Assembly: GCA_964464475.1 (NCBI GenBank)
Contig: CAYXGG010000003.1
Location: forward strand, 48,823 to 112,822
Direction of reading: 5' to 3'
Length of the DNA stretch: 64,000 nucleotides
DNA from: an uncultured Planctomycetales bacterium
GTDB lineage: Bacteria > Omnitrophota > Gorgyraeia > Zapsychrales > JAHFFX01
Shown here piece after piece: positions 788 through 54,962 of the stretch. Position 1 is the first letter of the stretch. Every line of letters starts with the position of its first letter. The position numbers were made by a program, and so were the translations under genes. A model generated the notes under the pieces. It ran no database searches. It worked only from the letters and a program-made list of their open reading frames with translations, and was not told the DNA's origin.

Positions 788-2548
788 ATGGGTCACGATC
801 ATCATAATTCTGGTCATACTGCTCATAAAAACACTGGCATCGTAAGCTTCTTAAAAACTTACGTCTTCAGTACTGATCACAAAATGATTGGTATCTGGTA
901 TGGTATAACGGCATTAGCATTTTTGTTTTTTGGATTTATGCTAATACTGCTCATGCGCTGGCAATTAGCCTATCCTGAGCAACCCTTACCCTTGATTGGC
1001 GCATGGTTTGGAGAAACCCGAATGCCGGGTGGCGTGATGCTTCCGGAATTCTACAACCAATTAGGCGCTATGCACGGGACGATCATGGTTTTCTTGGGTA
1101 TTGTTCCTTTAGCCGTCGGAGCATTTGGTAACTATCTGATTCCTTTAATGATTGGGGCTCCGGATATGGCCTTTCCCAAACTTAATTTGGCCAGCTACTG
1201 GAGCTTTTTTGCTGGCGGGGTTATTATGCTCGCTAGCTTTTTTGTTCCGGGTGGCGCGGCAAGCTCCGGGTGGACTTCTTATGCACCGTTGGCCGTAATT
1301 GCGACGACTGGTCAGACCATGTGGATCATCGGTATGGTTTTCTTGATTACGTCGTCTTTATTAGGGGCCGTAAATTTTATTGTCACCATTATTCAAATGC
1401 GGGCACCGGGTATGACTTTTATGAAAATGCCCTTTTTTATTTGGGCCCAACTGGTGACTTCATTTTTGCTATTATTAGCTTTTCCTCCCCTAGAAGCTGC
1501 AGGAATTATGCAACTCATGGATCGTGTCGCTCAGACCAGTTTCTTTATGCCATCAGGACTCGTGGTCAGTGGGCAGGCTTTACCCATTAGCGGAGGGGGC
1601 AGTGTTCTATTATGGCAACACTTGTTCTGGTTTCTGGCGCACCCGGAAGTTTATGTGTTGATTTTACCGGCCATGGGAATTGTTTGCGAAATCATCGCCA
1701 ATAATAGCCGCAAACCTATTTGGGGTTATAAATCCATGGTCTATTCCGTCATTTTCTTAGGATTTATGTCTTTCATTGTGTGGGCTCATCATATGTTCAT
1801 TACCGGTATGGGAACCGCCATCAGCGCGTTTTTCCAGGCCACAACCATGATTATTTCGATTCCCTCAGTTATTATCTTAACGGCCTTATTTATTTCGCTG
1901 TGGGGAGGATCAATTCGTTTTAATACCCCGATGCTATTTGCCTTGGCTTTCTTGCCAATGTTTGGCATCGGCGGACTCACGGGTTTACCCTTAGGATTAT
2001 CGACTCCTGACATTCAGCTGCATGATACCTATTATGTTATTGGTCATTTTCATTATGTCGTTGCGCCTGGGACCATATTTGGGCTTTTTGCCGGCATCTA
2101 TTATTGGTTTCCTAAGGTAACGGGAAGAAAGCTCAATGAAACCTTGGGTCAACTCCATTTTTGGCCATCGCTTATTTGTATGAATTTAATTTTTATGCCG
2201 ATGTTTATTCAGGGGTTAGCGGGTGTCTCACGCCGATTGTATGATGGAGGGGCTTCTTACATACACGCCAAAGAAGTCTTGCATTTGAACGTTTCAATGT
2301 CGCATTCAGCCTGGCTCATGGGCGCGGTACAACTATTCTTCATTATTAATATCATCTGGAGTTTATTTAAAGGTGAGAAGGCTAGCGATAATCCTTGGCA
2401 AGCCACGACGCTTGAATGGGCAACACCAACGCCACCACAGCATGGCAATTTTGAATTTGATCCTAAAGTCTATCGGGGACCCTACGAATACAGTGTTCCT
2501 GGCGCGACCCAAGACTTTACGCCCCAGCATCAAGAAAAGGTGATCTAA
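788..2548 (+). CDS. ctaD: Cytochrome c oxidase subunit I.
   Basis: 586 aa, polytopic. Conserved haem-copper oxidase motifs are present (WFFGHPEVY-like HLFWFLAHPEVYVLILP, and the histidines in the HHMF/VIGHFHYV region). Confidence 0.93.
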   Translation: MGHDHHNSGHTAHKNTGIVSFLKTYVFSTDHKMIGIWYGITALAFLFFGFMLILLMRWQLAYPEQPLPLIGAWFGETRMPGGVMLPEFYNQLGAMHGTIMVFLGIVPLAVGAFGNYLIPLMIGAPDMAFPKLNLASYWSFFAGGVIMLASFFVPGGAASSGWTSYAPLAVIATTGQTMWIIGMVFLITSSLLGAVNFIVTIIQMRAPGMTFMKMPFFIWAQLVTSFLLLLAFPPLEAAGIMQLMDRVAQTSFFMPSGLVVSGQALPISGGGSVLLWQHLFWFLAHPEVYVLILPAMGIVCEIIANNSRKPIWGYKSMVYSVIFLGFMSFIVWAHHMFITGMGTAISAFFQATTMIISIPSVIILTALFISLWGGSIRFNTPMLFALAFLPMFGIGGLTGLPLGLSTPDIQLHDTYYVIGHFHYVVAPGTIFGLFAGIYYWFPKVTGRKLNETLGQLHFWPSLICMNLIFMPMFIQGLAGVSRRLYDGGASYIHAKEVLHLNVSMSHSAWLMGAVQLFFIINIIWSLFKGEKASDNPWQATTLEWATPTPPQHGNFEFDPKVYRGPYEYSVPGATQDFTPQHQEKVI

Positions 2549-2549
2549 T

Positions 2550-3164
2550 ATGTCTTCATCTCACGCTCATGCGGAAGTGCTTCCTTATACGGTAGAGCCT
2601 CGCCCAGAAACCGGACTTTATAACGGTAAATTAGGCGTATGGTTATTTTTGGCATCGGAAGTCATGCTTTTTGGAGGGCTTTTCTCAGCCTACATTTTAT
2701 TACGCATGGGCTCGACTAATTGGCCATTGGGCTCGACGATTCTCAATGTTCCCATCGGAACCTTTAATACCATCGTGTTGATTTCTTCAAGCGTCACCAT
2801 GGTCTTGGCCTGGGCCGCCTTAAAAATGAATGATTTCAAAAAATACAAACTTTGGTTGGGGCTAACCATTTTGTGCGCCTTATTGTTTCTGGTCGTTAAA
2901 TATTTTGAGTATGGAGCTAAGTTTGAGCACCATTTACTGCCCAAAACCAGCACCTATATGGCAATTTATTTCACGCTAACGGGTTTACATGCGCTCCACA
3001 TCATCGGTGGGATTATCGTTAATACCTACCTCTGGGGGCCGGGAAGCAAAATGTGGTTTACTCAAAGAGAACGTTTTGAGAATCGCATTGAAGTTGCTGG
3101 CTTGTATTGGCATTTCGTTGATTTGGTTTGGATATTCTTATTTCCGGTACTTTATCTTTTGTGA
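2550..3164 (+). CDS. ctaE: Cytochrome c oxidase subunit III.
   Basis: 204 aa with the C-terminal HFVDLVWIFLF motif. Its start is 2 nt after the ctaD stop and has an AAAAGGTGA ribosome-binding site. Confidence 0.88.
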   Translation: MSSSHAHAEVLPYTVEPRPETGLYNGKLGVWLFLASEVMLFGGLFSAYILLRMGSTNWPLGSTILNVPIGTFNTIVLISSSVTMVLAWAALKMNDFKKYKLWLGLTILCALLFLVVKYFEYGAKFEHHLLPKTSTYMAIYFTLTGLHALHIIGGIIVNTYLWGPGSKMWFTQRERFENRIEVAGLYWHFVDLVWIFLFPVLYLL

Positions 3165-3170
3165 GGAACT

Positions 3171-3530
3171 ATGAGCGCCACCCACACCCATGACGTACAA
3201 AAAGAAGTCAAAATCTACTTAACGGTATTCGTCGCTTTGGGAATATTGACCGTTATTACCGTGGCGATTAGTAAATTACATTTTGGTTTAGTCGGGAATA
3301 TCACCGTGGCGTTGATTATTGCCACTATAAAAGCATCACTGGTTGCTTGCTATTTCATGCATCTGATTTCTGAAAAACAATTAATTTATGCTATTTTAGG
3401 AATGACGGGGTTTTTCTTTATATGCATGATTGTGTTGTTTATCGCCGGATTACATGACCCTATTATGGGGACGGAAATGATTAAAGGAGCAGGGCATGTC
3501 GCTCAAACAATTCCACATTCTGTTCATTAA
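3171..3530 (+). CDS. ctaF: Cytochrome c oxidase subunit IV (bacterial CtaF/CoxD type).
   Basis: 119 aa protein with three predicted TM helices, in the position normally occupied by ctaF, with a GAGGAA ribosome-binding site. Confidence 0.6.
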   Translation: MSATHTHDVQKEVKIYLTVFVALGILTVITVAISKLHFGLVGNITVALIIATIKASLVACYFMHLISEKQLIYAILGMTGFFFICMIVLFIAGLHDPIMGTEMIKGAGHVAQTIPHSVH

Positions 3531-3918
3531 TTTAGCGATACTTATGTTAGTTGGTTTCTTTGCCTGGACGCTTTCGCCGCAGGGCAAGACGCTTGGCAGT
3601 CAAACCGCTCTCTGGGGAGTGGTTTGCCTACTATTAGCTATAGGGCTAATTGTTTACGAAATTAGTTTCTTCAAGAAAACAAAAGGTCTCCTCATCGCAC
3701 TGGCCTTAATTGGTCAGCTTGTTGGAGTAAAATCCAGTCAAGCTTGCACGATGTGCTTTAGTCAAGGGGCTGGCAACAGTCAACTTATTGCAGTTAAGTT
3801 AGGAATTTTAAGTTTATTTCTGATTTTGATGGGAGTTCTAGCTACTTTGGTCTGGTTTTTTATAGGCATGGCGAAGAAAAGCAAATCGCTTAGTGTAAAT
3901 TCTGCAAATTTAACTTAA
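3496..3918 (+). CDS. Hypothetical polytopic membrane protein with a CxxC motif, embedded in the oxidase operon.
   Basis: 140 aa. An AAAGGAGCAGGG ribosome-binding site precedes the ATG. The start overlaps the ctaF 3' end by 35 nt. Contains QACTMCFSQG in a loop. No family recognised. Confidence 0.4.
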   Translation: MSLKQFHILFINLAILMLVGFFAWTLSPQGKTLGSQTALWGVVCLLLAIGLIVYEISFFKKTKGLLIALALIGQLVGVKSSQACTMCFSQGAGNSQLIAVKLGILSLFLILMGVLATLVWFFIGMAKKSKSLSVNSANLT

Positions 3919-3920
3919 TT

Positions 3921-4706
3921 ATGGAAAAAGGCTGGATACAAAAAATCATGGGGTTACCGCCCTTAGCTTCAGCGCAGGGTGGTGAAATTGACCTGATTAT
4001 TTTCCTCATGCATGTGTTGATGCTGGTTTTGTTGGTGGGCTGGGGAGTTTTCTTTATTTATGTTTTGTTCCGTTTCCGCGCGAAAAGAAATCCAAAAGCG
4101 AATTATACGGGAGTAACGAACCATTATTCGACCTACATTGAAGGTGCCGTGGCGCTTATCGAAGCCTTATTGTTAATCGGTTTCTCCATTCCTTTCTGGG
4201 CTAAAAATGTCAGTGCACTACCCACCGATAGAAATCCCATTGAAATCAGATTAGTGGCTGAGCAATTTGCCTGGGATTTTCATTATCCGGGTGCCGATGG
4301 AATTTTTGGAAAAACGGACATTAAATTTATCGACAAACAATCGAACCCGCTAGGATTAGACAAAGCAGATCCTGCATCTAAAGACGATATCGTTTCCATT
4401 AACCAATTATATCTACCTGTCAACCGTCAAGCCGTTATCCATGTTTCTAGTAAGGATGTTATTCATTCTTTTGCTCTTAATGTCATGCGGGTCAAACAGG
4501 ACGCCATTCCTGGCATGAGCATTCCCGTATGGTTTACGCCCACCCAAACCGGCCATTCTGAGATTGCCTGCGCTCAATTATGTGGATTAGGACATTACCG
4601 GATGAAGGGAGACCTCTACGTCGTTACTAATACAGAATACGACACGTGGTTGGCCTCTCAAGCCAAAACCTCGACTGGCTCCGGCGAAGAAGATTTTTGG
4701 AACTGA
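3921..4706 (+). CDS. ctaC: Cytochrome c oxidase subunit II (CuA subunit, no fused cytochrome c domain).
   Basis: Two N-terminal TM helices, then the CuA site HSFALNVMRVKQD...H...EIACAQLCGLGHYRMKG. Confidence 0.9.
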   Translation: MEKGWIQKIMGLPPLASAQGGEIDLIIFLMHVLMLVLLVGWGVFFIYVLFRFRAKRNPKANYTGVTNHYSTYIEGAVALIEALLLIGFSIPFWAKNVSALPTDRNPIEIRLVAEQFAWDFHYPGADGIFGKTDIKFIDKQSNPLGLDKADPASKDDIVSINQLYLPVNRQAVIHVSSKDVIHSFALNVMRVKQDAIPGMSIPVWFTPTQTGHSEIACAQLCGLGHYRMKGDLYVVTNTEYDTWLASQAKTSTGSGEEDFWN

Positions 4707-4717
4707 TTGGATAAATC

Positions 4718-5719
4718 ATGAGCAGCACTCCTGTCACAAATCCTGAAGCGCCTTCAGGGCTGAGACGATTTTCAAAAATTGTCTCTCTGACAACCTTAGC
4801 TTTAATTTTTGTCGGTGGCATGGTAACTAGCACCTCTTCGGGGCTGTCCGTTCCTGACTGGCCGCTTTCCTATGGAATGCTTTTCCCTCCTATGGTGGGA
4901 GGTGTTTTTTATGAACACGGGCACCGAATGGTTGCCGCCCTCGTAGGGTTCTTGACATTAATTCAGGCATTCTGGTTATGGCGAAGCCCCGTCGCTCCAT
5001 GGATAAAAAAGCTAGGTTGGGTTGCCTTAGGTGTGGTTATCTTGCAAGGTCTTTTGGGAGGATTAACGGTCTTAATGTTTTTGCCGCCACCAGTCTCGAT
5101 TTCTCACGGTGTCTTGGCCCAGACATTTTTCTTAATTACGATTGTCATTGCTTATGCTCTTTCGGTTGAGCGGCAAAATAAAATTAACGGAAAAACATTT
5201 TATCTGGAAAAAAATTTACTTAAATCAGCTTTATTACTTACCGCCGCAGTTTATATTCAACTCATCCTAGGGGCTTTGATGCGTCATACTCAATCGGGGC
5301 TCGCTATTCCTGATTTCCCAACAATGGGGGGAAAGATCATTGCTTCGTTTGATCAAAGCATGCTAAATTCGATCAATGATTGGCGCTTCGAGTATAATTA
5401 TCCACCGGTAGTTATGAAGCAAATAGTTATTCATTTTTTGCACCGGGCTTGGGCGATAGTCATTTTACTACTCGTTTTGTCTTTAGCTTGGAAACTTGTC
5501 CGGATGCCAACACTTTTTCCAAATATCAAAGCTTCGATTATCTATGTAAATAGTATTATCTGGATCCAAATAATCTTAGGAATTTTAACGGTATTAAATC
5601 ATAAATCGCCAGTACTTACGAGTCTACACGTCGTGACCGGGGCGACGACCTTAGGGTTATGCATGTTACTCTTACTTCGAGCTGCGCCTTTATCCTGGAA
5701 AGATTTCTTAAAATCATGA
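4718..5719 (+). CDS. ctaA: Haem A synthase (COX15/CtaA).
   Basis: 333 aa polytopic protein. The N-terminal region RFSKIVSLTTLALIFVGGMVTSTSSGLSVPDWPLSYG and the conserved His residues are typical of CtaA. Confidence 0.85.
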   Translation: MSSTPVTNPEAPSGLRRFSKIVSLTTLALIFVGGMVTSTSSGLSVPDWPLSYGMLFPPMVGGVFYEHGHRMVAALVGFLTLIQAFWLWRSPVAPWIKKLGWVALGVVILQGLLGGLTVLMFLPPPVSISHGVLAQTFFLITIVIAYALSVERQNKINGKTFYLEKNLLKSALLLTAAVYIQLILGALMRHTQSGLAIPDFPTMGGKIIASFDQSMLNSINDWRFEYNYPPVVMKQIVIHFLHRAWAIVILLLVLSLAWKLVRMPTLFPNIKASIIYVNSIIWIQIILGILTVLNHKSPVLTSLHVVTGATTLGLCMLLLLRAAPLSWKDFLKS

Positions 5720-6588
5720 ATCAACAAAATAAAGAATTGTTTAACGGTTATCTGGAACTTTCCAAACCCAGTATTACCACACTTATTTTAATCACAATGG
5801 GACTAGGATACTTTCTGGGCGGGAAGGGGATAGCAGACTGGATCAATTTCTGTTTTAGTCTTTCTGGTGCCGCGTTAGTTTGCGCCGGAGCATCAGCCCT
5901 CAATCATTACTTAGAGCGTGATGCTGATTGCAAAATGGCGCGTACAAAAAATCGGCCAATTCCCTCAGGACTAATTGCCGCTCACAACGCACTATCTTTT
6001 GGCATCATCACAATTTTAACCGGAATAACTCTCTTAGCCGTTAAGGTCAATTTGCTTACCGCTTTTTTAAGCCTTTTGACTGCTTTTCTATACGTTATTG
6101 TTTACACTCCTATGAAAAAACGTAGCTGGCTTAATACTTCTATTGGAGCAATTCCCGGAGCTATTCCACCAATGGGAGGCTGGGCAGCCGCTACAGGACA
6201 GTTGGACTGGGGAGCGTGGATCCTTTTTGGGATTCTGTTTTTGTGGCAACATCCCCATTTCTTCGCTATTGCCTGGATGTTTAAAGAGGACTATGGTAAA
6301 GCCGGATTTAAAATGCTGCCGGTCATTGATCCTGGCGGACAAAAAACATTTGAACAAATCGAAATTTTTTCGCTGTTGTTAATACCCGTTTCCCTTATGC
6401 CAACTTTAATTGGTTTGTCTGGGGGGCTGTACTTCTGGGGAGCATTGCTTCTAGGAATTAGCTTTTGGTGGGCGGGTAAAGCGTTGGCTCAAACTCATTC
6501 CTTTGCTGATGCACGCAAATTGCTTAAAGCCTCTGTTATTTATTTACCCTTACTATTTATTTTAATTATTGCTGATTTTTCCTTTTAA
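5716..6588 (+). CDS. ctaB: Protohaem IX farnesyltransferase (haem O synthase).
   Basis: UbiA-family motifs are present (DADCKMARTKNRPIPSG). The in-frame ATG forms an ATGA overlap with the ctaA stop. The track ORF begins earlier, at 5659. Confidence 0.88.
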   Translation: MNQQNKELFNGYLELSKPSITTLILITMGLGYFLGGKGIADWINFCFSLSGAALVCAGASALNHYLERDADCKMARTKNRPIPSGLIAAHNALSFGIITILTGITLLAVKVNLLTAFLSLLTAFLYVIVYTPMKKRSWLNTSIGAIPGAIPPMGGWAAATGQLDWGAWILFGILFLWQHPHFFAIAWMFKEDYGKAGFKMLPVIDPGGQKTFEQIEIFSLLLIPVSLMPTLIGLSGGLYFWGALLLGISFWWAGKALAQTHSFADARKLLKASVIYLPLLFILIIADFSF

Positions 6589-6592
6589 AGCT

Positions 6593-7195
6593 ATGCCTCC
6601 AAGCCGGAAAATATTCTGGTTATTGTTCGTGTTAACGACGCTCCTCATGTTGTCTTTTGCCGGATATCTTTTTTGGCGAGAATCTAGACCGCGAGAACTA
6701 CTCACCTTAGGAACAATCGCCAACGCAAAATTCACCACGAGTGACCGCCAAGAATTTGAATTATCCCAACTCAAAGGAAAGGTATGGGTCGCTGATTTTA
6801 TTTTCACCACTTGCGGTGGCATTTGTCCGATTATGTCAAAAAACATGGCCCAATTACACCGCTCTTACGTACTTCTCGATGATGTCCGCATGGTCTCTAT
6901 ATCCGTAAATCCTGAACAAGATACGCCCGAAGTCCTTCAGGAGTACGCCAAACGCTATAAAGCAGATACCGCACGCTGGCTTTTTCTTACGGCGCCTCGG
7001 GAAGTCATTCAGGATTTAGCCGTGCATAGCTTTAAAATGGGTTCCATTGATGAACCAATTTTTCATAGTTCTAAATTCGTTTTGGTTGATCGGGAGATGA
7101 AGATTCGGGGTTATTATGATGGGACAACGGCAGGAGATATTGCCCGACTATACACAGATGTGGCTTCTTTACTAAAAGAAAGAAATCGTAAGTGA
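6593..7195 (+). CDS. SCO1/SenC family copper chaperone.
   Basis: TM anchor followed by a thioredoxin-like fold with FIFTTCGGICP (CxxxC) and a downstream His. The track ORF starts at 6569 and overlaps ctaB, so the ATG at 6593 was chosen. Confidence 0.8.
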   Translation: MPPSRKIFWLLFVLTTLLMLSFAGYLFWRESRPRELLTLGTIANAKFTTSDRQEFELSQLKGKVWVADFIFTTCGGICPIMSKNMAQLHRSYVLLDDVRMVSISVNPEQDTPEVLQEYAKRYKADTARWLFLTAPREVIQDLAVHSFKMGSIDEPIFHSSKFVLVDREMKIRGYYDGTTAGDIARLYTDVASLLKERNRK

Positions 7196-7611
7196 ACGTA
7201 CCCTTGTTTCCGACTATCAATGCCAGTTTGAATGCGTTAGCGGGTGTCTTTCTTGTCTTGGGCTGGATGGCGATCAAGCAAGGAAACAAAGAACGCCACC
7301 GCCAATGCATGATCGGCGCTGTTTGTGCTTCGACATTATTCTTAATTTCTTACGTAACTTATCATGCAACGGTAGGGGTGGTAACGCGCTATGCAGGACA
7401 AGGAGTTAAACGGGCTATCTATTTCTTTATTCTGGGAACCCATACGCCTTTGGCGGTTCTCATATTACCTTTTGTAGTGGCAGCCATTTGGTACGCGGCC
7501 AAAGGTAACTTTGTTAAACACGCCCAAATTACTCGTTGGTTATGGCCAACCTGGATTTATGTATCTTTAACCGGCGTTCTGGTCTACTTAATGCTCTACG
7601 TTATTAAATAG
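7192..7611 (+). CDS. DUF420 (CtaM-like) membrane protein associated with aa3 oxidases.
   Basis: 139 aa protein with four TM helices and the typical DUF420 N-terminus. GTG start overlaps the sco stop. Last gene of the oxidase cluster. Confidence 0.65.
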   Translation: MNVPLFPTINASLNALAGVFLVLGWMAIKQGNKERHRQCMIGAVCASTLFLISYVTYHATVGVVTRYAGQGVKRAIYFFILGTHTPLAVLILPFVVAAIWYAAKGNFVKHAQITRWLWPTWIYVSLTGVLVYLMLYVIK

Positions 7612-7942
7612 ATTTCGCTGCCACAACTGATTTAGGCCGTAATCGATCCCGCAGGAACCTTCCCATTTTTTTTTGTCGCTCCCAAAAAAATGAGAATTGA
7701 CCGAGTAGCGCCGCATAGAACAACACAGAAATTTGGTACACCGGGAAGAAAATAAGCGGGAAGGAAAGAATTTTCGCCCAAAGAGGAGCGTGGTCAAGTC
7801 CCAAGAAATGAAAAATCTTAGGCCGAGTTAGCGAGATATTCATTCCGGCCAAAGAGAAGGTTATCAAAATTAGCGTCAAATCAAGGTTACTTTTGATTTG
7901 ATATTTAGCTTTAAATTTCTGCAAAAAATTTTCCTTACTCAT
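7604..7942 (-). CDS. Hypothetical small membrane protein (about 113 aa) and last gene of the minus-strand operon.
   Basis: ATG with a GGGGAG-like ribosome-binding site, 1 nt after the preceding peptide's stop. Two to three TM helices. The track ORF (7604..7966) uses an upstream start. Confidence 0.4.
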   Translation of the reverse strand: MSKENFLQKFKAKYQIKSNLDLTLILITFSLAGMNISLTRPKIFHFLGLDHAPLWAKILSFPLIFFPVYQISVLFYAALLGQFSFFWERQKKMGRFLRDRLRPKSVVAAKSI

Positions 7943-7943
7943 T

Positions 7944-8090
7944 TTAGCTCCCCAATCTCCAATCATTCGGAAACACCACCAACATAAAATATAAACCCAC
8001 GGCTAAGAGAACCACAGCCAAGAAAACCAAAACGTAGATCATTTTAAGAAAACCGTCTGCGCCAGTATCAAACTTCAGAATAGTCCTCAT
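7944..8090 (-). CDS. Putative small hydrophobic peptide (about 48 aa).
   Basis: Internal ATG (MRTILKF...) of track ORF 7944..8129. One TM helix. Tightly packed between neighbouring genes (5 nt and 1 nt gaps). No clear SD. Confidence 0.25.
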   Translation of the reverse strand: MRTILKFDTGADGFLKMIYVLVFLAVVLLAVGLYFMLVVFPNDWRLGS

Positions 8091-8095
8091 GTCAG

Positions 8096-8257
8096 CTATT
8101 TTTTGAGTAAATACGCTTCGATAATCCAACCAAAAATAAAAACAATCATGCCCAACGCTAACTCTTGATGACTCATTAATTGGGGAAATTTTTTAATAAA
8201 GAAGACCAATAAAATTGTCATCCCCGTCGCTTGCGAAATTTTAGCTAAAAGGTACAT
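8096..8257 (-). CDS. Putative small hydrophobic protein (about 53 aa, MYLLAKISQATGMTILLVFF...).
   Basis: Own reading of the minus strand. It falls below the ORF-track size cutoff. It starts 9 nt after the upstream membrane protein's stop. Coordinates approximate. Confidence 0.2.
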   Translation of the reverse strand: MYLLAKISQATGMTILLVFFIKKFPQLMSHQELALGMIVFIFGWIIEAYLLKK

Positions 8258-8266
8258 AAAACGCAA

Positions 8267-8758
8267 TCAGATTTTAGGCTGGGGACGAGAAACACCAGAC
8301 ATATCTAACACAATGTCCGTACTGTCTTTAAATGCCTTATGTTGTATAACTAACATATAAAAGAAATGCGCTAAAGTCGCCCAAAACAGCCAGCCGTGAA
8401 TTGATTTGGCGATCCGATTGGTATCTACAGCACCTCCCAAAATAAACAATATACTCACTAAAAAAATGTTGAGTAATATCGGGGGATATATCTTCATTTT
8501 GACTTGAAAGGAACGTTTAAGAAATTCTTTAGGTAAACCTTGTTCATTAACGTAGTCTCTGATACTTACGCCAATGCCAACAAAATAAAACATGACCAGC
8601 GTTTCCGTAAACAAATAAATAATAGACGTCAATAACGCAAACGTCGCGTGATTAGCATTAAAGATTGAGAATCCCCAATAACCTTGAGCTGCTGTCAGAG
8701 ACAGCAATACCAGTGTTATCCCGGTCAAAACATAGCAGGAAATCATAAAAAACCACAT
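8267..8758 (-). CDS. His-rich membrane protein with four TM helices (possible cytochrome b-like membrane anchor).
   Basis: The internal Met (MWFFMISCYVL...) of track ORF 8267..9049 was chosen because the longer N-terminus overlaps the convincing ferredoxin gene in another frame. His residues sit inside predicted TM helices (NANHATF; IHGWLFWATLAHFFYMLVIQH). Confidence 0.5.
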   Translation of the reverse strand: MWFFMISCYVLTGITLVLLSLTAAQGYWGFSIFNANHATFALLTSIIYLFTETLVMFYFVGIGVSIRDYVNEQGLPKEFLKRSFQVKMKIYPPILLNIFLVSILFILGGAVDTNRIAKSIHGWLFWATLAHFFYMLVIQHKAFKDSTDIVLDMSGVSRPQPKI

Positions 8759-8771
8759 GGGCGAGAGGAAA

Positions 8772-9131
8772 TTAAGCTGAAATGCTTTTGGTTGAAGGGA
8801 TGAACGCTTCGCTAATTTGAATGTTGAATTTTTTCTCGATTTCTTCTGTGGGTACCATTCGAATGGCGTCCCATGTAAGTTTATTACAAACACGAGAGCA
8901 AATTTGGCAACCGATACACTCGTTATAACGAATTTCAACGGGTGGTATCGTCGTTCCGTGATCCTGGGTGTGCGGCTGAATACAATCAACCGGGCAAAAC
9001 GGAACACAGACTTGACAGCCGGTGCAATTATCGACGTCAACCAGGGCAATAAGCTTAGGCCGTTTCTTCTTCGCTGAAATCTTATCCGGAAGTTCAGGAA
9101 TTGTTTTATAAAAAGAAGAAGGAACGGCCAT
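8772..9131 (-). CDS. Ferredoxin with two [4Fe-4S] motifs.
   Basis: CTGCQVCVPFCPVDC and CIGCQICSRVC motifs. 119 aa, with a basic N-terminal extension. Confidence 0.8.
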   Translation of the reverse strand: MAVPSSFYKTIPELPDKISAKKKRPKLIALVDVDNCTGCQVCVPFCPVDCIQPHTQDHGTTIPPVEIRYNECIGCQICSRVCNKLTWDAIRMVPTEEIEKKFNIQISEAFIPSTKSISA

Positions 9132-9161
9132 AAGTTAGCGCTATAGCAATAATTTAATTTT

Positions 9162-9443
9162 TTACTTCGGTGGAGCTAGCGGCGGTTTCTTTTCGGTAAT
9201 CGTAGGAAGTGAGGGAGCCTTTTCCCGATTCAATTGAGTATAGCTTTTCCATTTTTCAGGAACATCACCCTCGGCATAAATCGCTTGAACAGGGCATTCC
9301 GGAATACAAGCGCCGCAATCAATACAAACATCCGGATCAATAACTACCATTTCCGCATCTTCATGAAAGCAATCAACGGGGCAAACAGTAACACAATCCG
9401 TGTAACGGCATTTTACGCACGGTTCGGTAACGACATGAGCCAT
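9162..9443 (-). CDS. fdxA: 7Fe ferredoxin ([3Fe-4S][4Fe-4S], Azotobacter FdI type).
   Basis: Near-identical motif layout to FdI ([24 protein letters not shown]...[16 protein letters not shown]...TEKK). A strong AGGAGGAAGAG ribosome-binding site precedes it. Confidence 0.88.
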
Positions 9444-9571
9444 CTCTTCCTCCTATTGGTTGAAAAAAAACACAACTAATTTCTTATTTATCGACGACTA
9501 AATTTATTACTAAATACTGGGTAAGTATAACAAACGCGTTTTTTTTGTCAAACAACAATTTTCAAATAATC

Positions 9572-11077
9572 CTACAAGGAAACCGTGTCGTGTTGAGTAA
9601 TCTTACTAACGGCTTTTTCAGTGACCCCCAGATTCTTATTGGCGCGACTAGAGATTTTCTGTAAGAAATACTCAGCAAACGCTTTAAAGCCATGCAACTT
9701 ACGTAACAAATCGCCTACTGAATTGATCGAAATCAACATGCGCCACATTTGGCGGGGACGTAAATAAAATTCCTTTAATCCGGTGTCAATCAACTGATCA
9801 ATCTGTCGACTGGATAACTGCGGGTAATTAAGCAAGGTTCGTTGTTCTTTTTGGGCGGTTAGCCATTCATCCCATTTTTTGGTGACCAAATAGTCATTTT
9901 CTTTTGCCCATTTGTATAAAGTGGTTCCTGGATAAGCGGCCACACCCGTAATCTGAATAGTATCCAGTGGTAGTGACTTAGCAAAATCAATGGTCTGTCG
10001 AGCGCTCTCCTGAGTTTCGCCGGGGGCTCCGATCATAAAACAACCATGAATCGTAAAACCCAAATTATGGGCGCGATTAGCGTAGCGAGAGGCCATTTCA
10101 GTGCTGACGCCACCTTTACGAATAACCCGTAACTGTTCGTCAGTCCCAAATTCAAAACCCGTCATGAGCATGCGACACCCCGCTTTACGCATTAAGGGGA
10201 GAAGTTCTAAATCCGTATTGACCCGCATATTACACGACCAAGTAATTTTTTTGTTGATACCCCGACGCATGATTTCTTCACAGACTTCAGTTACATGCTT
10301 CTTATCAGCGGCAAAGGTATCTGTTTCAAACATAATTTCGCGAATTTGGGGATGAGTCTTTAAGTCATACTCCATCTCATCAACCACTAATTGCGCATCT
10401 CGATTACGCAAGCGGTAGCCATACATCAGTTGCGGATCTCGACAAAAAGTACAGGCGTTATTGCAGCCTCTTCCCGTGATAAGTGTCAAAAACGGGAATT
10501 TTTTACCGCCATCAGGATACCACTCGGGTTGGATTAATTGCCAGGCTGGAAAGGGGAGCTCATTGACGTCAATCGTGGGGCGATCTAGATTATTAACCAC
10601 CTGCGTGCCATCCCACCAGGACATTCCCAGAACATCCGCCGGTTTTACGTTATTAGCTAAATCTCTTAAAGCGTAATCATATTCGCGTCTTAAGACATAA
10701 TCAACAACGCCTCGGCCAATTTTGAAAGTGTCCTCAACTTCCGCCGTCACGTGTTGCCCTACAAACGCCACTTGGCAATGAGTCCTGTCTTTGATGATTT
10801 TGGCTTGGTTGATATCCGCAAAAATGGATGGGGTCGTTGCGTGAATAACTAGTAAATCGGGATGAGCATTAACTGTAAGGTTGATGGAATCTTCGGGAGG
10901 CAAGTTTCGAGCGGCCGCTTCAATAAACTCAACTTTATGGCCCGCGTTAAGAAGGACTTGCGCGGCAATCAATAAGAATTCTGGGTGCCTTTGAACACGT
11001 CCACGTGATTTAGCTGACCACCGAGCGACCCTGACAAAATCATCCCCATAACTGGGGTTGAGAATAACTACCTTCAT
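9572..11077 (-). CDS. B12-binding-domain radical SAM enzyme (class B radical SAM). Substrate unknown.
   Basis: N-terminal cobalamin-binding-like domain plus a radical SAM core with GRGCNNACTFC (CxxxCxxC). 501 aa. GAAAGG ribosome-binding site. Confidence 0.8.
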   Translation of the reverse strand: MKVVILNPSYGDDFVRVARWSAKSRGRVQRHPEFLLIAAQVLLNAGHKVEFIEAAARNLPPEDSINLTVNAHPDLLVIHATTPSIFADINQAKIIKDRTHCQVAFVGQHVTAEVEDTFKIGRGVVDYVLRREYDYALRDLANNVKPADVLGMSWWDGTQVVNNLDRPTIDVNELPFPAWQLIQPEWYPDGGKKFPFLTLITGRGCNNACTFCRDPQLMYGYRLRNRDAQLVVDEMEYDLKTHPQIREIMFETDTFAADKKHVTEVCEEIMRRGINKKITWSCNMRVNTDLELLPLMRKAGCRMLMTGFEFGTDEQLRVIRKGGVSTEMASRYANRAHNLGFTIHGCFMIGAPGETQESARQTIDFAKSLPLDTIQITGVAAYPGTTLYKWAKENDYLVTKKWDEWLTAQKEQRTLLNYPQLSSRQIDQLIDTGLKEFYLRPRQMWRMLISINSVGDLLRKLHGFKAFAEYFLQKISSRANKNLGVTEKAVSKITQHDTVSL

Positions 11078-11082
11078 AAGTA

Positions 11083-11214
11083 CCTTTCTACTGGCCTATT
11101 TACTACCAAAGACAGAAGTAAGCCAGTACCTGATGAAGTCAGGCCTTTCTTCTGTTCGGGGAAAGGCCGTATTCACCTCAATATTCTTGTCTTTCGTAGT
11201 AGAAAGGTCAATAA
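11083..11214. repeat. Copy A of a ~120-130 nt structured element. It contains a conserved hairpin (TACTGGCC...N28...AAGCCAGTA) and a 3' box GTAGTAGAAAGGTCAATAA, flanked by a near-perfect 10-11 bp inverted repeat (CCTTTCTACT/AGTAGAAAGG).
   Basis: Direct sequence comparison with a second copy at about 43200-43321. Lies between the radical SAM start and the acnA promoter. Confidence 0.6.
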
Positions 11215-11342
11215 GCCGTTGGCTCTTAAAAAATTATCTACTAAAATAGTATCCTAAAAAATGCCGTTTGCAAGACCAAAGTCGGTTTTTATCCAAACCC
11301 CGTTGTTAACCTAAGTCTTCTGTTATCAAATAGATAAATAAT

Positions 11343-11371
11343 TTGACGAACTTAGGGGCATTCACTATAAT
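11343..11371 (+). promoter_or_regulatory. Sigma70-like promoter for acnA (TTGACG-N17-TATAAT).
   Basis: Consensus hexamers with 17-nt spacing, about 80 nt upstream of the acnA ATG. Confidence 0.5.
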
Positions 11372-11449
11372 GGGGGCTCGTTTGTTTTGTTTTGCTGCCC
11401 ATTTCCTTAATATTTAAATAATTAATAAGTTAATAACTAGGACAGACAC

Positions 11450-14152
11450 ATGAAAGCCCCATTCACAAACCAAATCACCAAGAAATCACTCAAAGTTGGC
11501 TCCCAAAATTACAACTACTATAAATTAGCTGAACTTTCCAAAGCCGGGATATCGGTTAACCCTAAACTACCTTACTCAATTAAAGTACTGCTAGAAAGCG
11601 CTCTGAGAAACTACGACAACTTTCAAGTAACCCTGGATGACATAACGCGCTTGGCTTCCTGGAAGCCAACCTCTGGCGTCACCACTGAAATTGCCTTTAA
11701 GCCTGGACGTGTGATTTTGCAAGATTTCACTGGCGTGCCCTGCGTCGTTGATTTAGCAGCCATGCGTTCGGCCATGAAAAAAATAGGGGGTGATATTCGC
11801 AAAATAAATCCCCAGGTTCCTTGCGATTTAGTCATTGATCATTCCGTTCAAGTTGATGCTTTCGGCTCTCGCGGAGCTATGCGCATTAACGTGACCAAAG
11901 AATTTGAACGCAACGCAGAACGCTATGAATTTCTCAAGTGGGGACAACAGGCTTTACAAAACTTTAGGGTTGTACCACCAGCAACGGGTATCGTACACCA
12001 AGTTAATTTAGAATACTTAGCTAAAGGAGTCCTGCAAAAAAAGATCGGTAAAGAAACAGTGGTTTTTCCAGATAGCTTGGTCGGGACCGATAGCCATACC
12101 ACCATGATCAATGGTTTAGGGATCGTGGGGTGGGGCGTGGGAGGAATTGAGGCCGAGGCGGTGATGCTCGGTGAACCGATTTATATGCTAATGCCGGAAG
12201 TGATTGGCGTTAAGTTAATCGGTCAGCTTAAAGAAGGAATGACCGCTACCGATTTAGTTTTGACCATTACTCAATTGCTACGTAAAAAGGGTGTCGTCGA
12301 TAAATTTGTGGAATTCTTTGGTCCGGGCCTTAAACATCTTTCGCTCCCGGATCGAGCGACCATCGCCAACATGGCACCCGAATATGGAGCCACTATTGGT
12401 TTTTTCCCTATTGATTCAGAGACATTAAAATATTTGGCGTTAAGTGGAAGAACCAAAGGTGAAGTTACCTTACTGGAAAAATACGCCAAGGCGCAGGGTA
12501 TGTTTTATTCTGGTGACCAGAATGCTGAATATACCGAAACTCTAGAATTTGATTTGAATTCGGTCGTCACTTGCCTGGCGGGTCCCAAACGTCCCCAGGA
12601 TCGAGTTAATCTGACGGACATGAAATCGGTGTTTCGGAAATCACTCGAGACTCCAATTAAAGAAAGGGGTTTTGGGCTGGATAAAACGGCGTTACTTAAT
12701 TCTGCGACCGTCACCAACGGCACAAAAGAGACAATTTCTCATGGATCTGTGGTGATCGCGGCGATTACCAGTTGTACTAATACCTCCAACCCCTCAGTTT
12801 TAATTGGCGCCGGATTATTGGCCAAAAAGGCGGTTGAAAAAGGATTAGCGGTAAAACACTTCGTCAAGACCAGCTTTGCGCCAGGATCGAAAGTTGTTGA
12901 AGAGTATTTGCAAACTGCGGGGCTTTTAGGTTATTTAGAAAAATTAGGATTCAACATCATTGGCTATGGATGCACTACCTGTATTGGTAACAGTGGCCCC
13001 TTGCCTGAACACGTGACGGCGGCCCTCAAAAAAACCAACTTGGTTGCGGCAAGTGTATTAAGTGGCAACCGAAATTTTGAAGGTCGTGTTAATCCTTTAG
13101 CGAAGGCCAATTACCTGGCTAGTCCTCCGTTAGTTGTGGCCTACGCTTTGGCAGGGAGCGTGGATGTTGATTTAACCGCTGAACCGCTTGGCAAAGATAA
13201 AAAAGGCAAAGAAGTCTTTCTTAAAGATATTTGGCCTAGCCAACAAGAGATTAACCAATTGATTGCCAAAACGGTCACAGCCGCCAAGTTTCGAGCGCGC
13301 TATAAAGATGTGCTAAAAGGAACACCTGATTGGAGCAAAATAAAGACGGTAAAGTCTGACTTATACGCTTGGAAAGAGAACAGCACCTATATTCAGGAGC
13401 CGCCATTTTTCACCAATTTAGCAGCGAGTGACCAAGCTCTGGGCGACATTAAAAATGCGCGCGTCTTGGTCATGGTGGGAGATTCCATTACGACTGATCA
13501 CATTTCCCCAGCCGGAGATATTGAAGAATCAAGCCCTGCGGGACAATACTTAAAATCTTTAGGCGTTCAAAAAGCCGACTTTAATAGTTATGGCGCCCGT
13601 CGTGGCAATGATCGCGTCATGACCCGCGGCACATTTGCCAACATTCGTTTGCGAAATTTATTGGCTCCGGGAACAGAAGGATCTTGGTCGACACATTTTC
13701 CCAGCAACCGCCGCGCCAGCATCTATGATACAGCCCAAGAGTATAAAAAAACAGGAACGCCGCTAGTCGTACTTGCCGGAAAAGAGTACGGTACGGGATC
13801 AAGTCGCGACTGGGCGGCCAAAGGGACTTCGCTACTGGGAGTTAAAGTTGTTCTCGCAGAAAGTTATGAACGTATTCATCGCAGTAATCTGGTCGGGATG
13901 GGGGTGTTACCCCTGATTTATAAGACTGGCCAGAACGCTGAAAGTTTAGGCCTCAAAGGGGATGAAATATTCAGTTTTCTGGGCATCACTAATCATATCA
14001 AGCCACGCCAGGAAATCGCTGTCGTCGCACAATCATCTAGTGGGGCTAAAATAGAATTCCAAGCTGTTTGCCGGTTAGATACACCGGTTGATATTGAATA
14101 TTACCGTAACGGCGGTATTTTGCCGACGGTATTAAAAAAATTAGCCAAATAA
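11450..14152 (+). CDS. acnA: Aconitate hydratase A.
   Basis: 900 aa protein with the aconitase Fe-S cluster cysteines and a C-terminal swivel domain (SRDWAAKG...). Confidence 0.93.
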
Positions 14153-14171
14153 TTATTTGAGGGAGATTCTG

Positions 14172-15578
14172 ATGGGTAAAACAATGTATCAAAAAATATG
14201 GGAAGACCATCTGGTCTACGAAAAAGCCCAGGAAACAGCCATTATTTATGTGGATCTGCATTTAATTCATGAAGTCACATCACCTCAGGCTTTTGCTGGA
14301 TTAAGAGAGACCAAGAGAGGGGTGCGAGTTCCCCAGAAAACATTTGCCACCATGGATCATAATGTTTCTACCCGAACTAAAGATATGGCTAAAGTGGAAT
14401 CCATGTCGAGAACTCAAATGGAGACCTTGTCCAAAAACTGTCGTGACTTTGGCGTTAAACTTTATGATTTTCAAAGTGAGGATCAGGGCATTGTTCATGT
14501 CATTGGACCCGAAAAAGGCATTACCCAACCCGGTATGGTGATTGTTTGCGGAGATTCACACACGTCGACTCATGGCGCTTTTGGGGCGCTGGCATTTGGC
14601 ATAGGAACTTCGGAAGTTGAACACGTTTTAGCTACACAAACTCTGCAGCAGCAAAAAGCCAAATCAATGCTTATCAGTATTGACGGCCAACTGGGTTTTG
14701 GCGTCACGGCGAAAGACATCATCCTCTACATTATTGGTCAAATTGGTACGGCTGGAGCCACTGGCTATGTTATTGAATACGCCGGAAGCGCCATCCGAGC
14801 CTTATCCATGGAAGGACGCATGACTATTTGCAATATGAGCATCGAGGCCGGTGGTCGGGCGGGGATGATCGCACCGGATGAAACCACTTTTGCTTATTTA
14901 AGAAATCGCGAATTTGCTCCAAAAGGATCTGATTGGGACAAGGCCCTCACTTACTGGAAAAGCTTGACTTCTGATTCTGACGCGCAATTTGACCGTGTCA
15001 TTAAAATTAAAGCAGAAGATATTGAGCCGCAAGTGACCTGGGGGACGAGCCCTGGTCAAGTAGTTTCCGTGACGGGGCAAGTGCCTAATCCGGACAATTT
15101 TTCAGATCCGGTGGAACGAATGGCCGCGCGCAATGCTCTTAGTTATATGGGACTCGAACCACAGGTTAAATTGACTGACATTACGATTGATAAAGTATTT
15201 ATTGGCTCCTGCACCAACGGACGCATTGAAGATTTACGAGTCGCCGCTAGTTTGGTGAAAGGGAAGAAAGTGCATCCTAACGTCAACGGCATTGTCGTTC
15301 CTGGTTCGGGTCGGGTGCGAGAGCAAGCGATTAAAGAAGGCTTAGATAAAACCTTCATCGAGGCGGGATTTGAATGGCGTTATGCGGGTTGTTCCATGTG
15401 TCTGGGGATGAACGACGACCAATTAAAAAAAGGAGAGCGTTGCGCCTCAACCAGCAATCGGAATTTTGAAGGACGTCAAGGCCCCGGAGGTAGAACGCAT
15501 CTGATGAGTCCTCAAATGGCCATCGCGGCCGCCGTGGAAGGGAAAATTACTGACGTTAGAAAATTCATGAAAGGTTAA
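14172..15578 (+). CDS. leuC: 3-isopropylmalate dehydratase large subunit.
   Basis: Aconitase-family large subunit ([15 protein letters not shown]...). A GAGGGA ribosome-binding site precedes the internal ATG. The track ORF begins at 14157. Confidence 0.88.
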
Positions 15579-15586
15579 AATATTCT

Positions 15587-16201
15587 ATGGAACCCTTTGT
15601 GCAGCATACCGGCGTGGTTGCACCGTTAGATCGAGTCAACATCGATACGGACGCAATCATCCCAAAACAATTTTTAAAAAAAGTGGACCGGACGGGATTC
15701 GGTATTCACTTATTTCATGAATGGCGTTACTTAGATTATGAAGGGACCAAGGAGAATCCAGATTTTATTCTCAATCAGCCGCTTTATCGAAAAGCAACGG
15801 TGTTATTAACCCGGGACAATTTTGGCTGTGGGTCAAGCCGTGAGCACGCACCCTGGGCGTTGGCTGATTTTGGTTTCAGAGTTATTATTGCGCCAAGTTT
15901 TGCCGATATCTTTGCCAACAACTGTGTCAAAAATGGCATCCTGCTGATCACGCTGAGCTCCGCAGATGTAGATGTGCTTTTTAAGCAATCACTGGCTCAG
16001 CCTGGAGTCAAACTTTCAGCAGACCTTCCCTCACAACAGTTAACTGGGCCAGATGGAAATAAGTATTCTTTCTCAATCAACTCATTTTCCAAAGACTGTT
16101 TATTAAAAGGCCTGGATCAAATTGGTTGGACGCTACAGTTTGCCAATCGCATTCAGGAATTTGAGACGAAATTAAAAACCGCCAAACCCTGGCTAAAATA
16201 A
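15587..16201 (+). CDS. leuD: 3-isopropylmalate dehydratase small subunit.
   Basis: 204 aa aconitase swivel-domain homolog immediately downstream of leuC. Confidence 0.88.
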
Positions 16202-16208
16202 CTGACCT

Positions 16209-17909
16209 ATGTCCAAAACTCATAAAATGTCGAAAAAAGATTTGCACCGTGCCCACTCGGCCTTGGTGATTGATGGCCATGAACGCGCGCCTTCGCGGGC
16301 GATGCTACGCGCGGTAGGGTTCAAGGATAACGATTTTAAGAAATCACAGATTGGGGTAGCCTCGACGTGGAGCATGGTAACCCCCTGCAATATGCACATT
16401 GATAAGCTGGCGCAAAGAACCGCGCAAGGGATTGATGAGAATGGCGGCAAAGCAGTCGTTTTTGGAACGATCACGATTTCAGATGGCATTTCGATGGGAA
16501 CCGAAGGGATGAAATATTCGCTGGTGTCCCGAGAAGTGATCGCGGATTCAATTGAAACCGTGGTGGGATGTGAGGGTTTTGACGGATTTGTGGCCATCGG
16601 TGGCTGCGACAAAAATATGCCAGGCTGCCTCATCGCCATGGCGCGTTTAAATCGTCCCTCGGTATTCGTCTACGGAGGAACGATCCTCCCGGGTTGCCAT
16701 CAAGAGCGTAACGTTGATATCGTTTCCGTTTTTGAAGCTGTGGGGGCACACGCGAATCAAAAAATTAACGATCAGGAATTGACCGCGATTGAATCTTCCG
16801 CCATCCCCGGACCGGGTTCCTGCGGAGGGATGTATACGGCCAATACCATGGCGTCCGCAATTGAAGCTTTAGGCATGAGTCTTCCCAACAGCTCCGCGCA
16901 GGCCGCTATTTCTCCCGACAAAGACCAGGATTGTTATGAAGCGGGTAAAGCCGTTCTTAACTTAATCAAACTTGGAATCACGCCAAAGGACATCTTAACT
17001 AAAAAAGCTTTTGAAAACGCAATCACTGTGGTCATTGCTCTCGGAGGCTCAACTAACGCCGTTTTACATCTGTTGGCCATGGCCCACGCCGCGAGAATAA
17101 AACTTTCCATCGATGATTTTACCAGAATAGGAAAACGAGTTCCGGTGCTTGCGGATTTAAAACCAAGTGGACGTTTTGTGATGGCCGAATTAGTCAAAAT
17201 TGGCGGAACCATGCCTTTGCTGAAAATGCTTTTGGATGCAGGGTTGATCCATGGCGATTGCCTGACGGTGACTGGGAAAACCATGCGCGAGAATTTAATT
17301 CACGTTCGACCTTATACGGCAGACCAAGAAATCATTCGTCCCCTAACCAACCCCATCAAAAAAAGTAGCCACTTAGTCATCCTCTACGGTAATTTAGCCC
17401 CAACCGGAGCGGTAGCCAAGATTTCTGGCAAAGAAGGCAATCAATTTACGGGAACTGCCCGAGTTTATAATTCAGAAGAAGCCGCGCTGCAGCGCATTCT
17501 CGATGGCACGATAAAAAAAGGTGATGTCATCGTTGTCCGTTATGAAGGTCCCAAAGGGGGACCAGGCATGCGCGAAATGCTAGCTCCAACTTCCGCGGTT
17601 ATGGGAAAAGGCTTAGGCAAAGATGTCGCGCTCATTACAGATGGTAGATTCTCTGGAGGAAGCCATGGATTTGTGGTAGGACATATTACACCGGAGGCTT
17701 ATGTCGGTGGACCGCTCGCCATTGTTAAAGACGGTGATAAAATTACAATTGATGCCAACCACCAAGAACTAAATCTACACTTATCCTCGGCAGAAATCAA
17801 AAAAAGGTTAAAGCAGTGGAAACAACCAAAACCCCGCTATACAATGGGCGTGCTTAGTAAATATATGAAAGTCGTTTCCTCGGCGTCGCAAGGAGCAGTA
17901 ACGGATTAA
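16209..17909 (+). CDS. ilvD: Dihydroxy-acid dehydratase.
   Basis: IlvD/EDD family motifs ([22 protein letters not shown]), 566 aa. Confidence 0.88.
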
Positions 17910-31472: not shown

Positions 31473-31668
31473 AATTTTTGTTTGGCCGATACCGATAGGC
31501 ACACACAACTATAATCTAAAGTACTCAAAACGCAAGAAAAATATTCCTCTTTTTAATTTCTTAAATATACAATATTTCAGTAGTTTAGCATCAGTTAAAA
31601 CACTAACATTCCCATTGAAATAATACACTTTTGTACTAAAATACGACCAAAATTCAAGAAAGGTTTTT

Positions 31669-38785: not shown

Positions 38786-38802
38786 TAAGAATTTTAAAAA
38801 CC

Positions 38803-43199: not shown

Positions 43200-43321
43200 G
43201 CAATACTGGCCTTTTCTCTTCCAATGCTAGTTAAGGAAGCCAGTATTAACCCTTTCTTCTCTTTGAGAAAAGGCGGTATTGACTACATTAAATACAGCAT
43301 TAGTAGTAGAAAGGTCAATAA
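43200..43321. repeat. Copy B of the structured element (TACTGGCC hairpin plus GTAGTAGAAAGGTCAATAA box), immediately upstream of menA.
   Basis: Aligned by eye with copy A. The hairpin stems are conserved and the loops differ. Confidence 0.6.
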
Positions 43322-54961: not shown

Positions 54962-54962
54962 A

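Follow-up and report, generated by a model that had tools for sequence, protein, structure and literature searches.

A tentatively composite locus in Omnitrophota: an HpnJ-like radical SAM gene, a neighbouring ferredoxin gene and small membrane proteins beside an aa3-type oxidase cluster

The DNA analysed here, a window of 64,000 nt from contig CAYXGG010000003.1 of an uncultured bacterium of the Omnitrophota (assembly GCA_964464475.1), carries at positions 7604–11077 a block of seven consecutive minus-strand open reading frames (ORFs): a radical S-adenosylmethionine (SAM) enzyme gene (here rSAM), the ferredoxin genes fdxA and Fd2, and four genes of small membrane proteins (Mem163, pepA, pepB and DUF6787). 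An earlier note on this DNA had taken them for one operon encoding a self-contained, membrane-linked radical SAM module. We tentatively favour another reading, in which the locus is a composite of three layers and not one module. rSAM, the first layer, would effectively be a stand-alone gene, an orphan relative of the sugar-acting class-B-type enzymes HpnJ and AprD4, and its product would use a 5'-deoxyadenosyl radical to rearrange a sugar of a lipid-linked or envelope glycan, by contracting its ring or by a similar step without methylation. The second layer would be fdxA, transcribed as its own unit from a conserved strong promoter, whose product, a general low-potential 7Fe ferredoxin, would reduce the [4Fe-4S] cluster of rSAM. 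The third layer, Fd2, Mem163, pepA, pepB and DUF6787, would have joined the end of the fdxA operon in a single event, in an Omnitrophota clade where an aa3-type oxidase and haem A cluster abuts these genes. Their products would most likely form a small membrane complex or act as accessory factors, the NuoI/PsaC-like Fd2 being a dispensable peripheral subunit, and would serve the aerobic respiratory apparatus more probably than the rSAM reaction.

The layers separate most clearly in the neighbourhoods of rSAM orthologues, which were surveyed in 59 loci from species-representative genomes and 80 metagenome loci. Among the 49 Omnitrophota loci with at least 2.5 kb downstream of rSAM, a 7Fe ferredoxin gene directly follows rSAM in 38 and the oxidase cluster lies downstream in 31. 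DUF6787 is present in all of these 31 oxidase loci, Mem163 and pepA in 26 (pepB too in 25) and Fd2 in 16. In 17 of the 49 the oxidase cluster and all membrane genes are missing; fdxA adjoins rSAM in 6 of these and not in the other 11. DUF6787 occurs with no oxidase cluster in L059, and the same pattern is seen in L012 and L014, two loci slightly too short for the tally. Outside the Omnitrophota, none of the seven loci with an rSAM orthologue (0/7) has the ferredoxin or membrane genes. The self-contained membrane-linked module thus has against it 17 of the 49 Omnitrophota loci and all seven loci from other phyla, which lack Fd2 and every membrane gene; conservation of the ferredoxin and membrane partners beside rSAM, on which that idea depended, largely fails, but fdxA does adjoin rSAM in the 38 loci. 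Also against such a module, ilvB-ilvN follows fdxA in seven oxidase-less loci (L030, L031, L033, L037, L038, L045 and L046), and in the window it lies at 54437–56717, 45 kb from fdxA on the same strand.

The history of the block was read from a neighbour-joining tree of rSAM, in which all membrane-gene loci fall into one clade with two fdxA-only loci (L024 and L034) as sisters, and in which the membrane genes and the oxidase cluster appear once. A single gain of the membrane genes, basal to one clade, means that rSAM did without them during most of its evolution, and the conclusion that they are not integral to its catalysis is robust. The same single appearance makes the contrast between the 31 and the 17 loci phylogenetically non-independent. 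More than 30 loci of the clade have the same strand and gene order. Fd2 has been lost many times in it, and L012 and L014 have lost the oxidase cluster and Mem163-pepA-pepB jointly while retaining DUF6787.

The block had been described as lying on one strand with gaps of 1–30 nt, which is true of the strand and of the gaps from fdxA to DUF6787 (30, 13, 9, 5 and 1 nt) but not of the gap between rSAM and fdxA, which measures 128 nt. This gap holds a sigma-70 extended -10 promoter-like site (9524–9551, minus strand) that is near-consensus, TTGACA-N16-TATACT with TG before the -10 element (an 11/12 match), and a strong ribosome-binding site, AGGAGG, lies upstream of fdxA. An equivalent promoter site (at least 11/13) was found in 29 of 38 unique orthologous gaps, compared with 0.6% of shuffled gaps, and in the orthologous gaps the -10 element typically ends 35–50 nt 5' of the fdxA start codon. 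Because the promoter is conserved in 29 of the 38 gaps, fdxA is predicted to head its own conserved transcription unit. No terminator was predicted in the rSAM-fdxA gap, and a search of region 7000–12000 against Rfam (E up to 1) gave no cobalamin, SAM or other riboswitch 5' of rSAM. The idea of a single seven-gene operon therefore keeps the shared strand, the tight gaps from fdxA onward and the lack of a predicted terminator, and has the conserved promoter in the 128-nt gap against it.

These observations bear directly on the reading in which the seven genes make up a single operon encoding a membrane-tethered radical SAM module, the ferredoxins reducing rSAM and the membrane proteins anchoring it or exchanging electrons with the membrane, as aerobes would need extra machinery to keep the oxygen-sensitive enzyme reduced or placed at a lipid substrate. 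This we consider improbable, because the 17 Omnitrophota and seven other-phyla loci without membrane genes conserve rSAM no less well, because those genes were acquired once and late, and because repeated losses of Fd2, Mem163 and the peptides have left rSAM in place; the separate fdxA promoter and the lack of conserved haem-ligand histidines (see below) count in the same direction. It draws what strength it has from the invariant order and strand in more than 30 loci of the clade, from the tight spacing and missing terminator, and from the three loci that keep DUF6787 with rSAM and fdxA in the absence of an adjacent oxidase; additionally, restriction to an aerobic clade could mean an aerobe-specific need and not a direct role at the oxidase.

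rSAM (9572–11077, minus strand; 501 aa) carries the CxxxCxxC motif as C205-NNA-C209-TF-C212, invariant in 42 homologues, and matches the Pfam family Radical_SAM with 68.8 bits and the Pfam B12-binding family with 26.1 bits, under the cut-off of 32.1. Its AlphaFold2 model (predicted local distance difference test, pLDDT, 77) finds AprD4 as the best fold in the PDB (E 3.6e-20, template modelling score 0.64–0.70), followed by MgmA, TsrM, OxsB, CysS and TokK, and resembles AprD4 and the cobalamin-binding TsrM, OxsB and TokK alike. The modelled architecture is thus predicted to be that of class B, with a sub-threshold B12-binding domain signature and putative cobalamin binding, and the class-B architecture given in the earlier note agrees with the cysteine motif, the Radical_SAM match and the AprD4/TsrM-like fold. 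Residues 11–32 (window 10982–11047), GDDFVRVARWSAKSRGRVQRHP, are almost wholly invariant in the 42 homologues yet modelled with a pLDDT below 50; they may form a loop that binds the cofactor, the substrate or a partner.

The comparison with radical SAM subfamilies that had been recommended placed the enzyme nearest to HpnJ and under the cut-off even there: the top NCBIfam model, HpnJ (TIGR03471), aligns over the full length (residues 2–470) with 334.1 bits against a cut-off of 577.6, and lower scores were given by BchE (111 bits), the ladderane-type model (85 bits), HpnR (61 bits) and the tryptophan-methylase (TsrM-type) model (37 bits). A search of 1.8 billion cluster representatives showed a narrow orthologue group, with about five clusters (50% identity) above 45% identity and the next matches at about 35%. 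Homologues 65–82% identical occur in more than 50 species-level Omnitrophota genomes; nearly all are Candidatus Omnitrophota metagenome-assembled genomes (MAGs), some being labelled 'uncultured Planctomycetales' and a few otherwise, which assigns the window to the Omnitrophota. Exact-sequence look-ups of rSAM and of a database copy 100% identical to it gave no record. rSAM is among the most conserved proteins of the locus, and on sequence grounds it is classed as HpnJ-like and as a member of no characterised subfamily.

HpnJ is a non-methylating enzyme for which the contraction of a glucosamine ring in the head group of a hopanoid glycolipid has been proposed, and a similar ring contraction has been proposed for the archaeal calditol synthase (PMC13459092, PMC9204698). 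It is the best-scoring family for rSAM and shares its two-domain architecture; moreover, relatives of rSAM in other phyla stand beside genes of family 2 glycosyltransferases (GT2), much as hpnJ sits with hpnI (PMC13459092). The window gene differs in scoring below the cut-off and in having neither hopanoid genes nor a GT2 match around it (the other window ORFs were scanned in part), and Omnitrophota rSAM is partnered with fdxA, not with hpnI or hpnK, and forms a separate narrow orthologue group. Its neighbours in the window are acnA, leuCD, ilvD, fdxA and the oxidase cluster, with no hopanoid genes (shc, hpnH, hpnI or hpnK) among them, and no squalene-hopene cyclase was found among the large ORFs scanned in part of the window. 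An identity as HpnJ itself was rejected on the score of 334.1 bits and on the missing hopanoid neighbourhood.

AprD4 (PDB 6fd2) is the nearest solved structure both by sequence (E 1e-14) and by fold. It is likewise a non-methylating, sugar-acting enzyme, a radical SAM 1,2-diol dehydratase whose substrate is the aminoglycoside paromamine; it shares just 17% identity with rSAM, belongs to actinomycete antibiotic biosynthesis and has another gene context. Methylation of a lipid or quinone, which had been suggested for this enzyme, does not agree with these matches, the best of which are non-methylating and sugar-acting both by sequence (HpnJ) and by fold (AprD4). An identity as a quinone or lipid methylase was rejected on the 37–85 bits of the HpnR, TsrM-type and ladderane-type models, and a haem-related role, considered for the proximity of ctaA and ctaB, was rejected as rSAM is kept in oxidase-less Omnitrophota and in loci of other phyla without oxidase genes.

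The sugar substrate is suggested by the glycan or glycolipid context of the orthologues outside the Omnitrophota, which are 41–57% identical to rSAM and score 283–403 bits against the HpnJ model. Their seven loci comprise three of Elusimicrobia type (two labelled, one unlabelled and syntenic), two of Rifleibacterium type (one labelled, one syntenic), one Dehalococcoides-labelled MAG and one unclassified MAG. An MftF-like GT2 gene lies within 3 kb of rSAM in all seven, and between them they hold genes for a polyprenyl-phosphate sugar synthase, DegT, RmlD, a family 4 glycosyltransferase (GT4) and PMT_2, as well as further B12-type radical SAM paralogues. In the Elusimicrobia-type loci (L047, L048 and L050) two to three such paralogues, mutually 25–33% identical, form one cluster with GT2, GT4, DegT, RmlD and PMT_2 genes, which suggests a glycan modified in several radical steps.

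The product of fdxA (9162–9443, minus strand; 93 aa) is a 7Fe ([3Fe-4S][4Fe-4S]) ferredoxin, as had been proposed: it matches Azotobacter vinelandii ferredoxin I over its full length (residues 2–90, E 1e-32), shares with it the motifs CxxCxxxxCxxxCP and CxxCxxCxxxCP, and differs in a shorter C-terminal tail. The NCBIfam model FdxA_Protbact gives 122.4 bits, just under the cut-off of 135. As fdxA is frequently and ancestrally adjacent to rSAM, FdxA is probably the reductant of the [4Fe-4S] cluster of rSAM. The Fe-S-dependent dehydratase genes acnA, leuC, leuD and ilvD also surround rSAM and fdxA (11450–17909 of the window).

Fd2 (8772–9131, minus strand; 119 aa) was correctly called a 2x[4Fe-4S] ferredoxin (Pfam Fer4_21 and Fer4_7). 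It has a conserved basic N-terminal extension, and its nearest solved relatives are FwdF, NdhI/NuoI and PsaC (E 2e-8 to 1e-5). With NuoI/NdhI and PsaC it shares two CxxCxxCxxxC motifs separated by an insert; it differs from them in that the matches are weak, in its own N-terminal extension and in the lack of adjacent complex I or photosystem genes. It occurs at 16 of the 31 loci that adjoin the oxidase cluster, and the 17 oxidase-less loci all lack it. Of the two ferredoxins once thought dedicated to rSAM, FdxA is reasonably seen as a dedicated or preferred reductant, following rSAM in 38 of 49 loci.

Mem163 (8267–8758, minus strand; 163 aa) is predicted by AlphaFold2 (pLDDT 91.7) to be an up-down four-helix bundle, and it has no match in Pfam, NCBIfam or the sequences of the PDB. 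Of its 626 homologues 120 were listed, and those of them that carry a name are all from Omnitrophota, the phylum to which Mem163 appears restricted. Six residues (C8, Y48, E52, K87, Y91 and N97) are invariant in 39 homologues, and the conservation of these polar positions suggests a functional site. The earlier note had seen in it a four-helix protein laid out like a b-haem anchor; the four helices are there, but none of the histidines is invariant, H37 being present in 34 of the 39 homologues (87%), H131 in 24 and H140 in 11, and H121 occurs in this genome alone, with tyrosine in its place in 37 of the 39. A b-haem or di-haem anchor was rejected for want of a conserved histidine pair. The best match to a natural membrane fold, though not a significant one, is oxidase subunit III (the C-terminal four-helix bundle of CyoC/COX3). 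Negative or non-significant results were also obtained when Mem163 was compared with a small membrane protein encoded in the glycan cluster of Rifleibacterium and with a conserved 199-aa protein encoded upstream of DUF6787 in the low-GC loci described below. In L017 (9921–10407) its orthologue is split into two overlapping ORFs, through a frameshift (a pseudogene) or an assembly error.

The two peptides of about 50 aa noted earlier have proved well conserved. pepA (8096–8257, minus strand; 53 aa, alternative TTG start at 8266) encodes a two-helix membrane peptide with the motif MYY.AK..QA.GL...FP.LM...G...F..GW, and pepB (7944–8090, minus strand; 48 aa, alternative TTG start at 8129) a single-helix membrane peptide in which an N-terminal ILKFDTGADGF precedes one hydrophobic helix; each is found in about 20 or more loci. 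Nonsynonymous differences per site (pN) are well below synonymous ones (pS) in both, with 0.35 against 0.79 for pepA and 0.30 against 0.81 for pepB; synonymous sites are saturated at about 0.8, and the larger neighbours Mem163, DUF6787 and Fd2 show the same pattern. With pN far below pS and with length, motif and position conserved, both are judged to be real coding genes under purifying selection.

The last gene, DUF6787 (7604–7942, minus strand; alternative ATG start at 7966), encodes the membrane protein previously given as 113 aa, here 112 aa, which matches PF20584 with 65.4 bits (gathering threshold 27.5); no papers on DUF6787 were found in the literature. A single-sequence search for relatives gave two matches, and a profile-based scan of metagenome contigs was used instead. 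This showed DUF6787 also in low-GC contigs outside the Omnitrophota, possibly Bacteroidota-like, where it stands beside nadC, DUF4783, iPGM and Usp genes. Its comparison with the small membrane protein of the Rifleibacterium cluster was negative.

The block lies, as had been observed, between an oxidase cluster and acnA, the former convergent with the membrane genes and the latter divergent from rSAM, upstream of it. The aa3-type oxidase and haem A cluster (788–7611, plus strand; Pfam assignments) consists of COX1 (788–2548), COX3 (2550–3164), a 140-aa ORF (3496–3918) between COX3 and COX2, COX2 (3921–4706), CtaA (4718–5719), CtaB (5659–6588), SCO1 (6569–7195) and DUF420 (7192–7611). DUF6787 and DUF420 meet tail-to-tail with an 8-nt overlap of their 3' ends (7604–7611), an adjacency kept in 31 loci, and as this leaves no room for a terminator the two transcripts must overlap as antisense; in L002 the corresponding overlap is 30 nt (9211–9240). 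Cytochrome c oxidase is patchily distributed in the Omnitrophota (PMC10066038). One gain, one joint loss, the adjacency and two weak structural resemblances offer weak support for tying the membrane genes to aerobic respiration.

Several observations weigh against the three-layer reading, most of them touching its third layer. The oxidase-membrane gene link is a weak one, as it goes back to about one gain and one joint loss, which are phylogenetically non-independent. The membrane genes stand on the strand of rSAM and fdxA, opposite to that of the oxidase genes; L005 and L026/L027 have retained the oxidase and lost Mem163 and the peptides, and L012, L014 and L059 keep DUF6787 beside rSAM and fdxA with no oxidase adjacent. 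No radical SAM or oxidase genes were found near DUF6787 in the low-GC loci outside the Omnitrophota. The resemblance of Mem163 to CyoC/COX3 is not significant (Foldseek E 0.14), its fold being a generic four-helix bundle and designed four-helix bundles scoring higher, and hhalign profile comparisons of Mem163 with the COX3 and the DUF420 of the window were negative. For the first two layers, the proposed sugar substrate leans on relatives just 41–57% identical, tblastn found no GT2 glycosyltransferase in the window, and since no terminator is predicted after rSAM, read-through co-transcription from rSAM into fdxA is possible.

Some of these points are what would be expected if the small membrane genes were lineage-specific genes with an unrelated role (for example in the envelope or in stress), fixed by chance between fdxA and the oxidase cluster and serving neither rSAM nor respiration. 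A single acquisition event, the unrelated neighbourhoods of DUF6787 in the low-GC loci and the differing gene content of the block among loci all agree with mere synteny; the order of Mem163-pepA-pepB-DUF6787 and its very short gaps have nevertheless been kept despite synonymous saturation, and the oxidase cluster was lost jointly with Mem163 and the peptides in L012 and L014. Such an explanation is rated as rather unlikely.

A third alternative lets FdxA or Fd2 dock on a complex of Mem163, pepA, pepB and DUF6787 and pass low-potential electrons into the aerobic chain, with menaquinone or the haem A synthase CtaA as the acceptor. Cox15, Yah1 and Arh1 of yeast offer an analogy for electron supply to haem A synthase, and to our knowledge the electron donor of bacterial CtaA has not been identified. 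The NuoI/PsaC-like character of Fd2, the strict adjacency to ctaA-ctaB-SCO1-DUF420 and the residues of Mem163 that are buried and invariant (Y48, E52, K87, Y91 and N97) or, as H37, 87% conserved would suit such a link; so would the 2-oxoacid:ferredoxin oxidoreductase and the menaquinone biosynthesis encoded in the window. We hold it to be very doubtful, given that the membrane proteins have no evident redox cofactor site and, in the Pfam, NCBIfam and PDB sequence searches, no homology to a known quinone- or haem-binding family, that Fd2 is missing in about half of the loci, and that Mem163 and the peptides are missing in several oxidase loci. Little credence is likewise given to a bolder combination, in which Fd2 and/or FdxA with Mem163, pepA, pepB and DUF6787 would make up a new minimal membrane complex feeding ferredoxin electrons to menaquinone or CtaA, and rSAM would separately equip an envelope glycolipid with a sugar head group that is carbocyclic or otherwise rearranged.

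The menaquinone set of the window consists of menD-like (38737–40584), menA (43279 or 43370 to 44238), menC (44223–45344) and menE-like (45313–46779) genes and, together with the 2-oxoacid:ferredoxin oxidoreductase gene (32908–34734), bears on a possible connection between reduced ferredoxin and quinone in the organism. Pfam (E up to 1e-5) gave no match for a 622-aa ORF at 29640–31508 (minus strand). The structured repeat whose copy A had been reported over the ribosome-binding site of rSAM is real: copy A (11089–11214) is located between rSAM and acnA and covers part or all of the Shine-Dalgarno sequence of rSAM, and copy B (43204–43321) precedes the likely menA start at 43370 by about 50 nt. 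They are imperfect palindromic repeats of about 125 nt, 68% identical, and both fold on either strand (z -2.0 to -5.2; copy A, -3.6 and -5.2). None of the 142 related loci contains the element and Rfam gave no match to it, which suggests a species-specific repeat of the repetitive extragenic palindromic (REP) or miniature inverted-repeat transposable element (MITE) kind, and not a conserved regulator.

The proposal of a self-contained radical SAM machine is thus not supported for this locus, and what remains is a conserved HpnJ/AprD4-like enzyme and a set of small membrane proteins of aerobic Omnitrophota. The glycan-cluster relatives of rSAM suggest that an unrecognised radical modification of sugars takes place in the envelopes of several uncultured phyla. 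Mem163, pepA and pepB have been assigned to no family and are confined to positions next to the oxidase genes in aerobic Omnitrophota; should they be accessory factors of the oxidase or an entry point for ferredoxin, they would bear on how the simplified aerobic chain of these very small bacteria is built.

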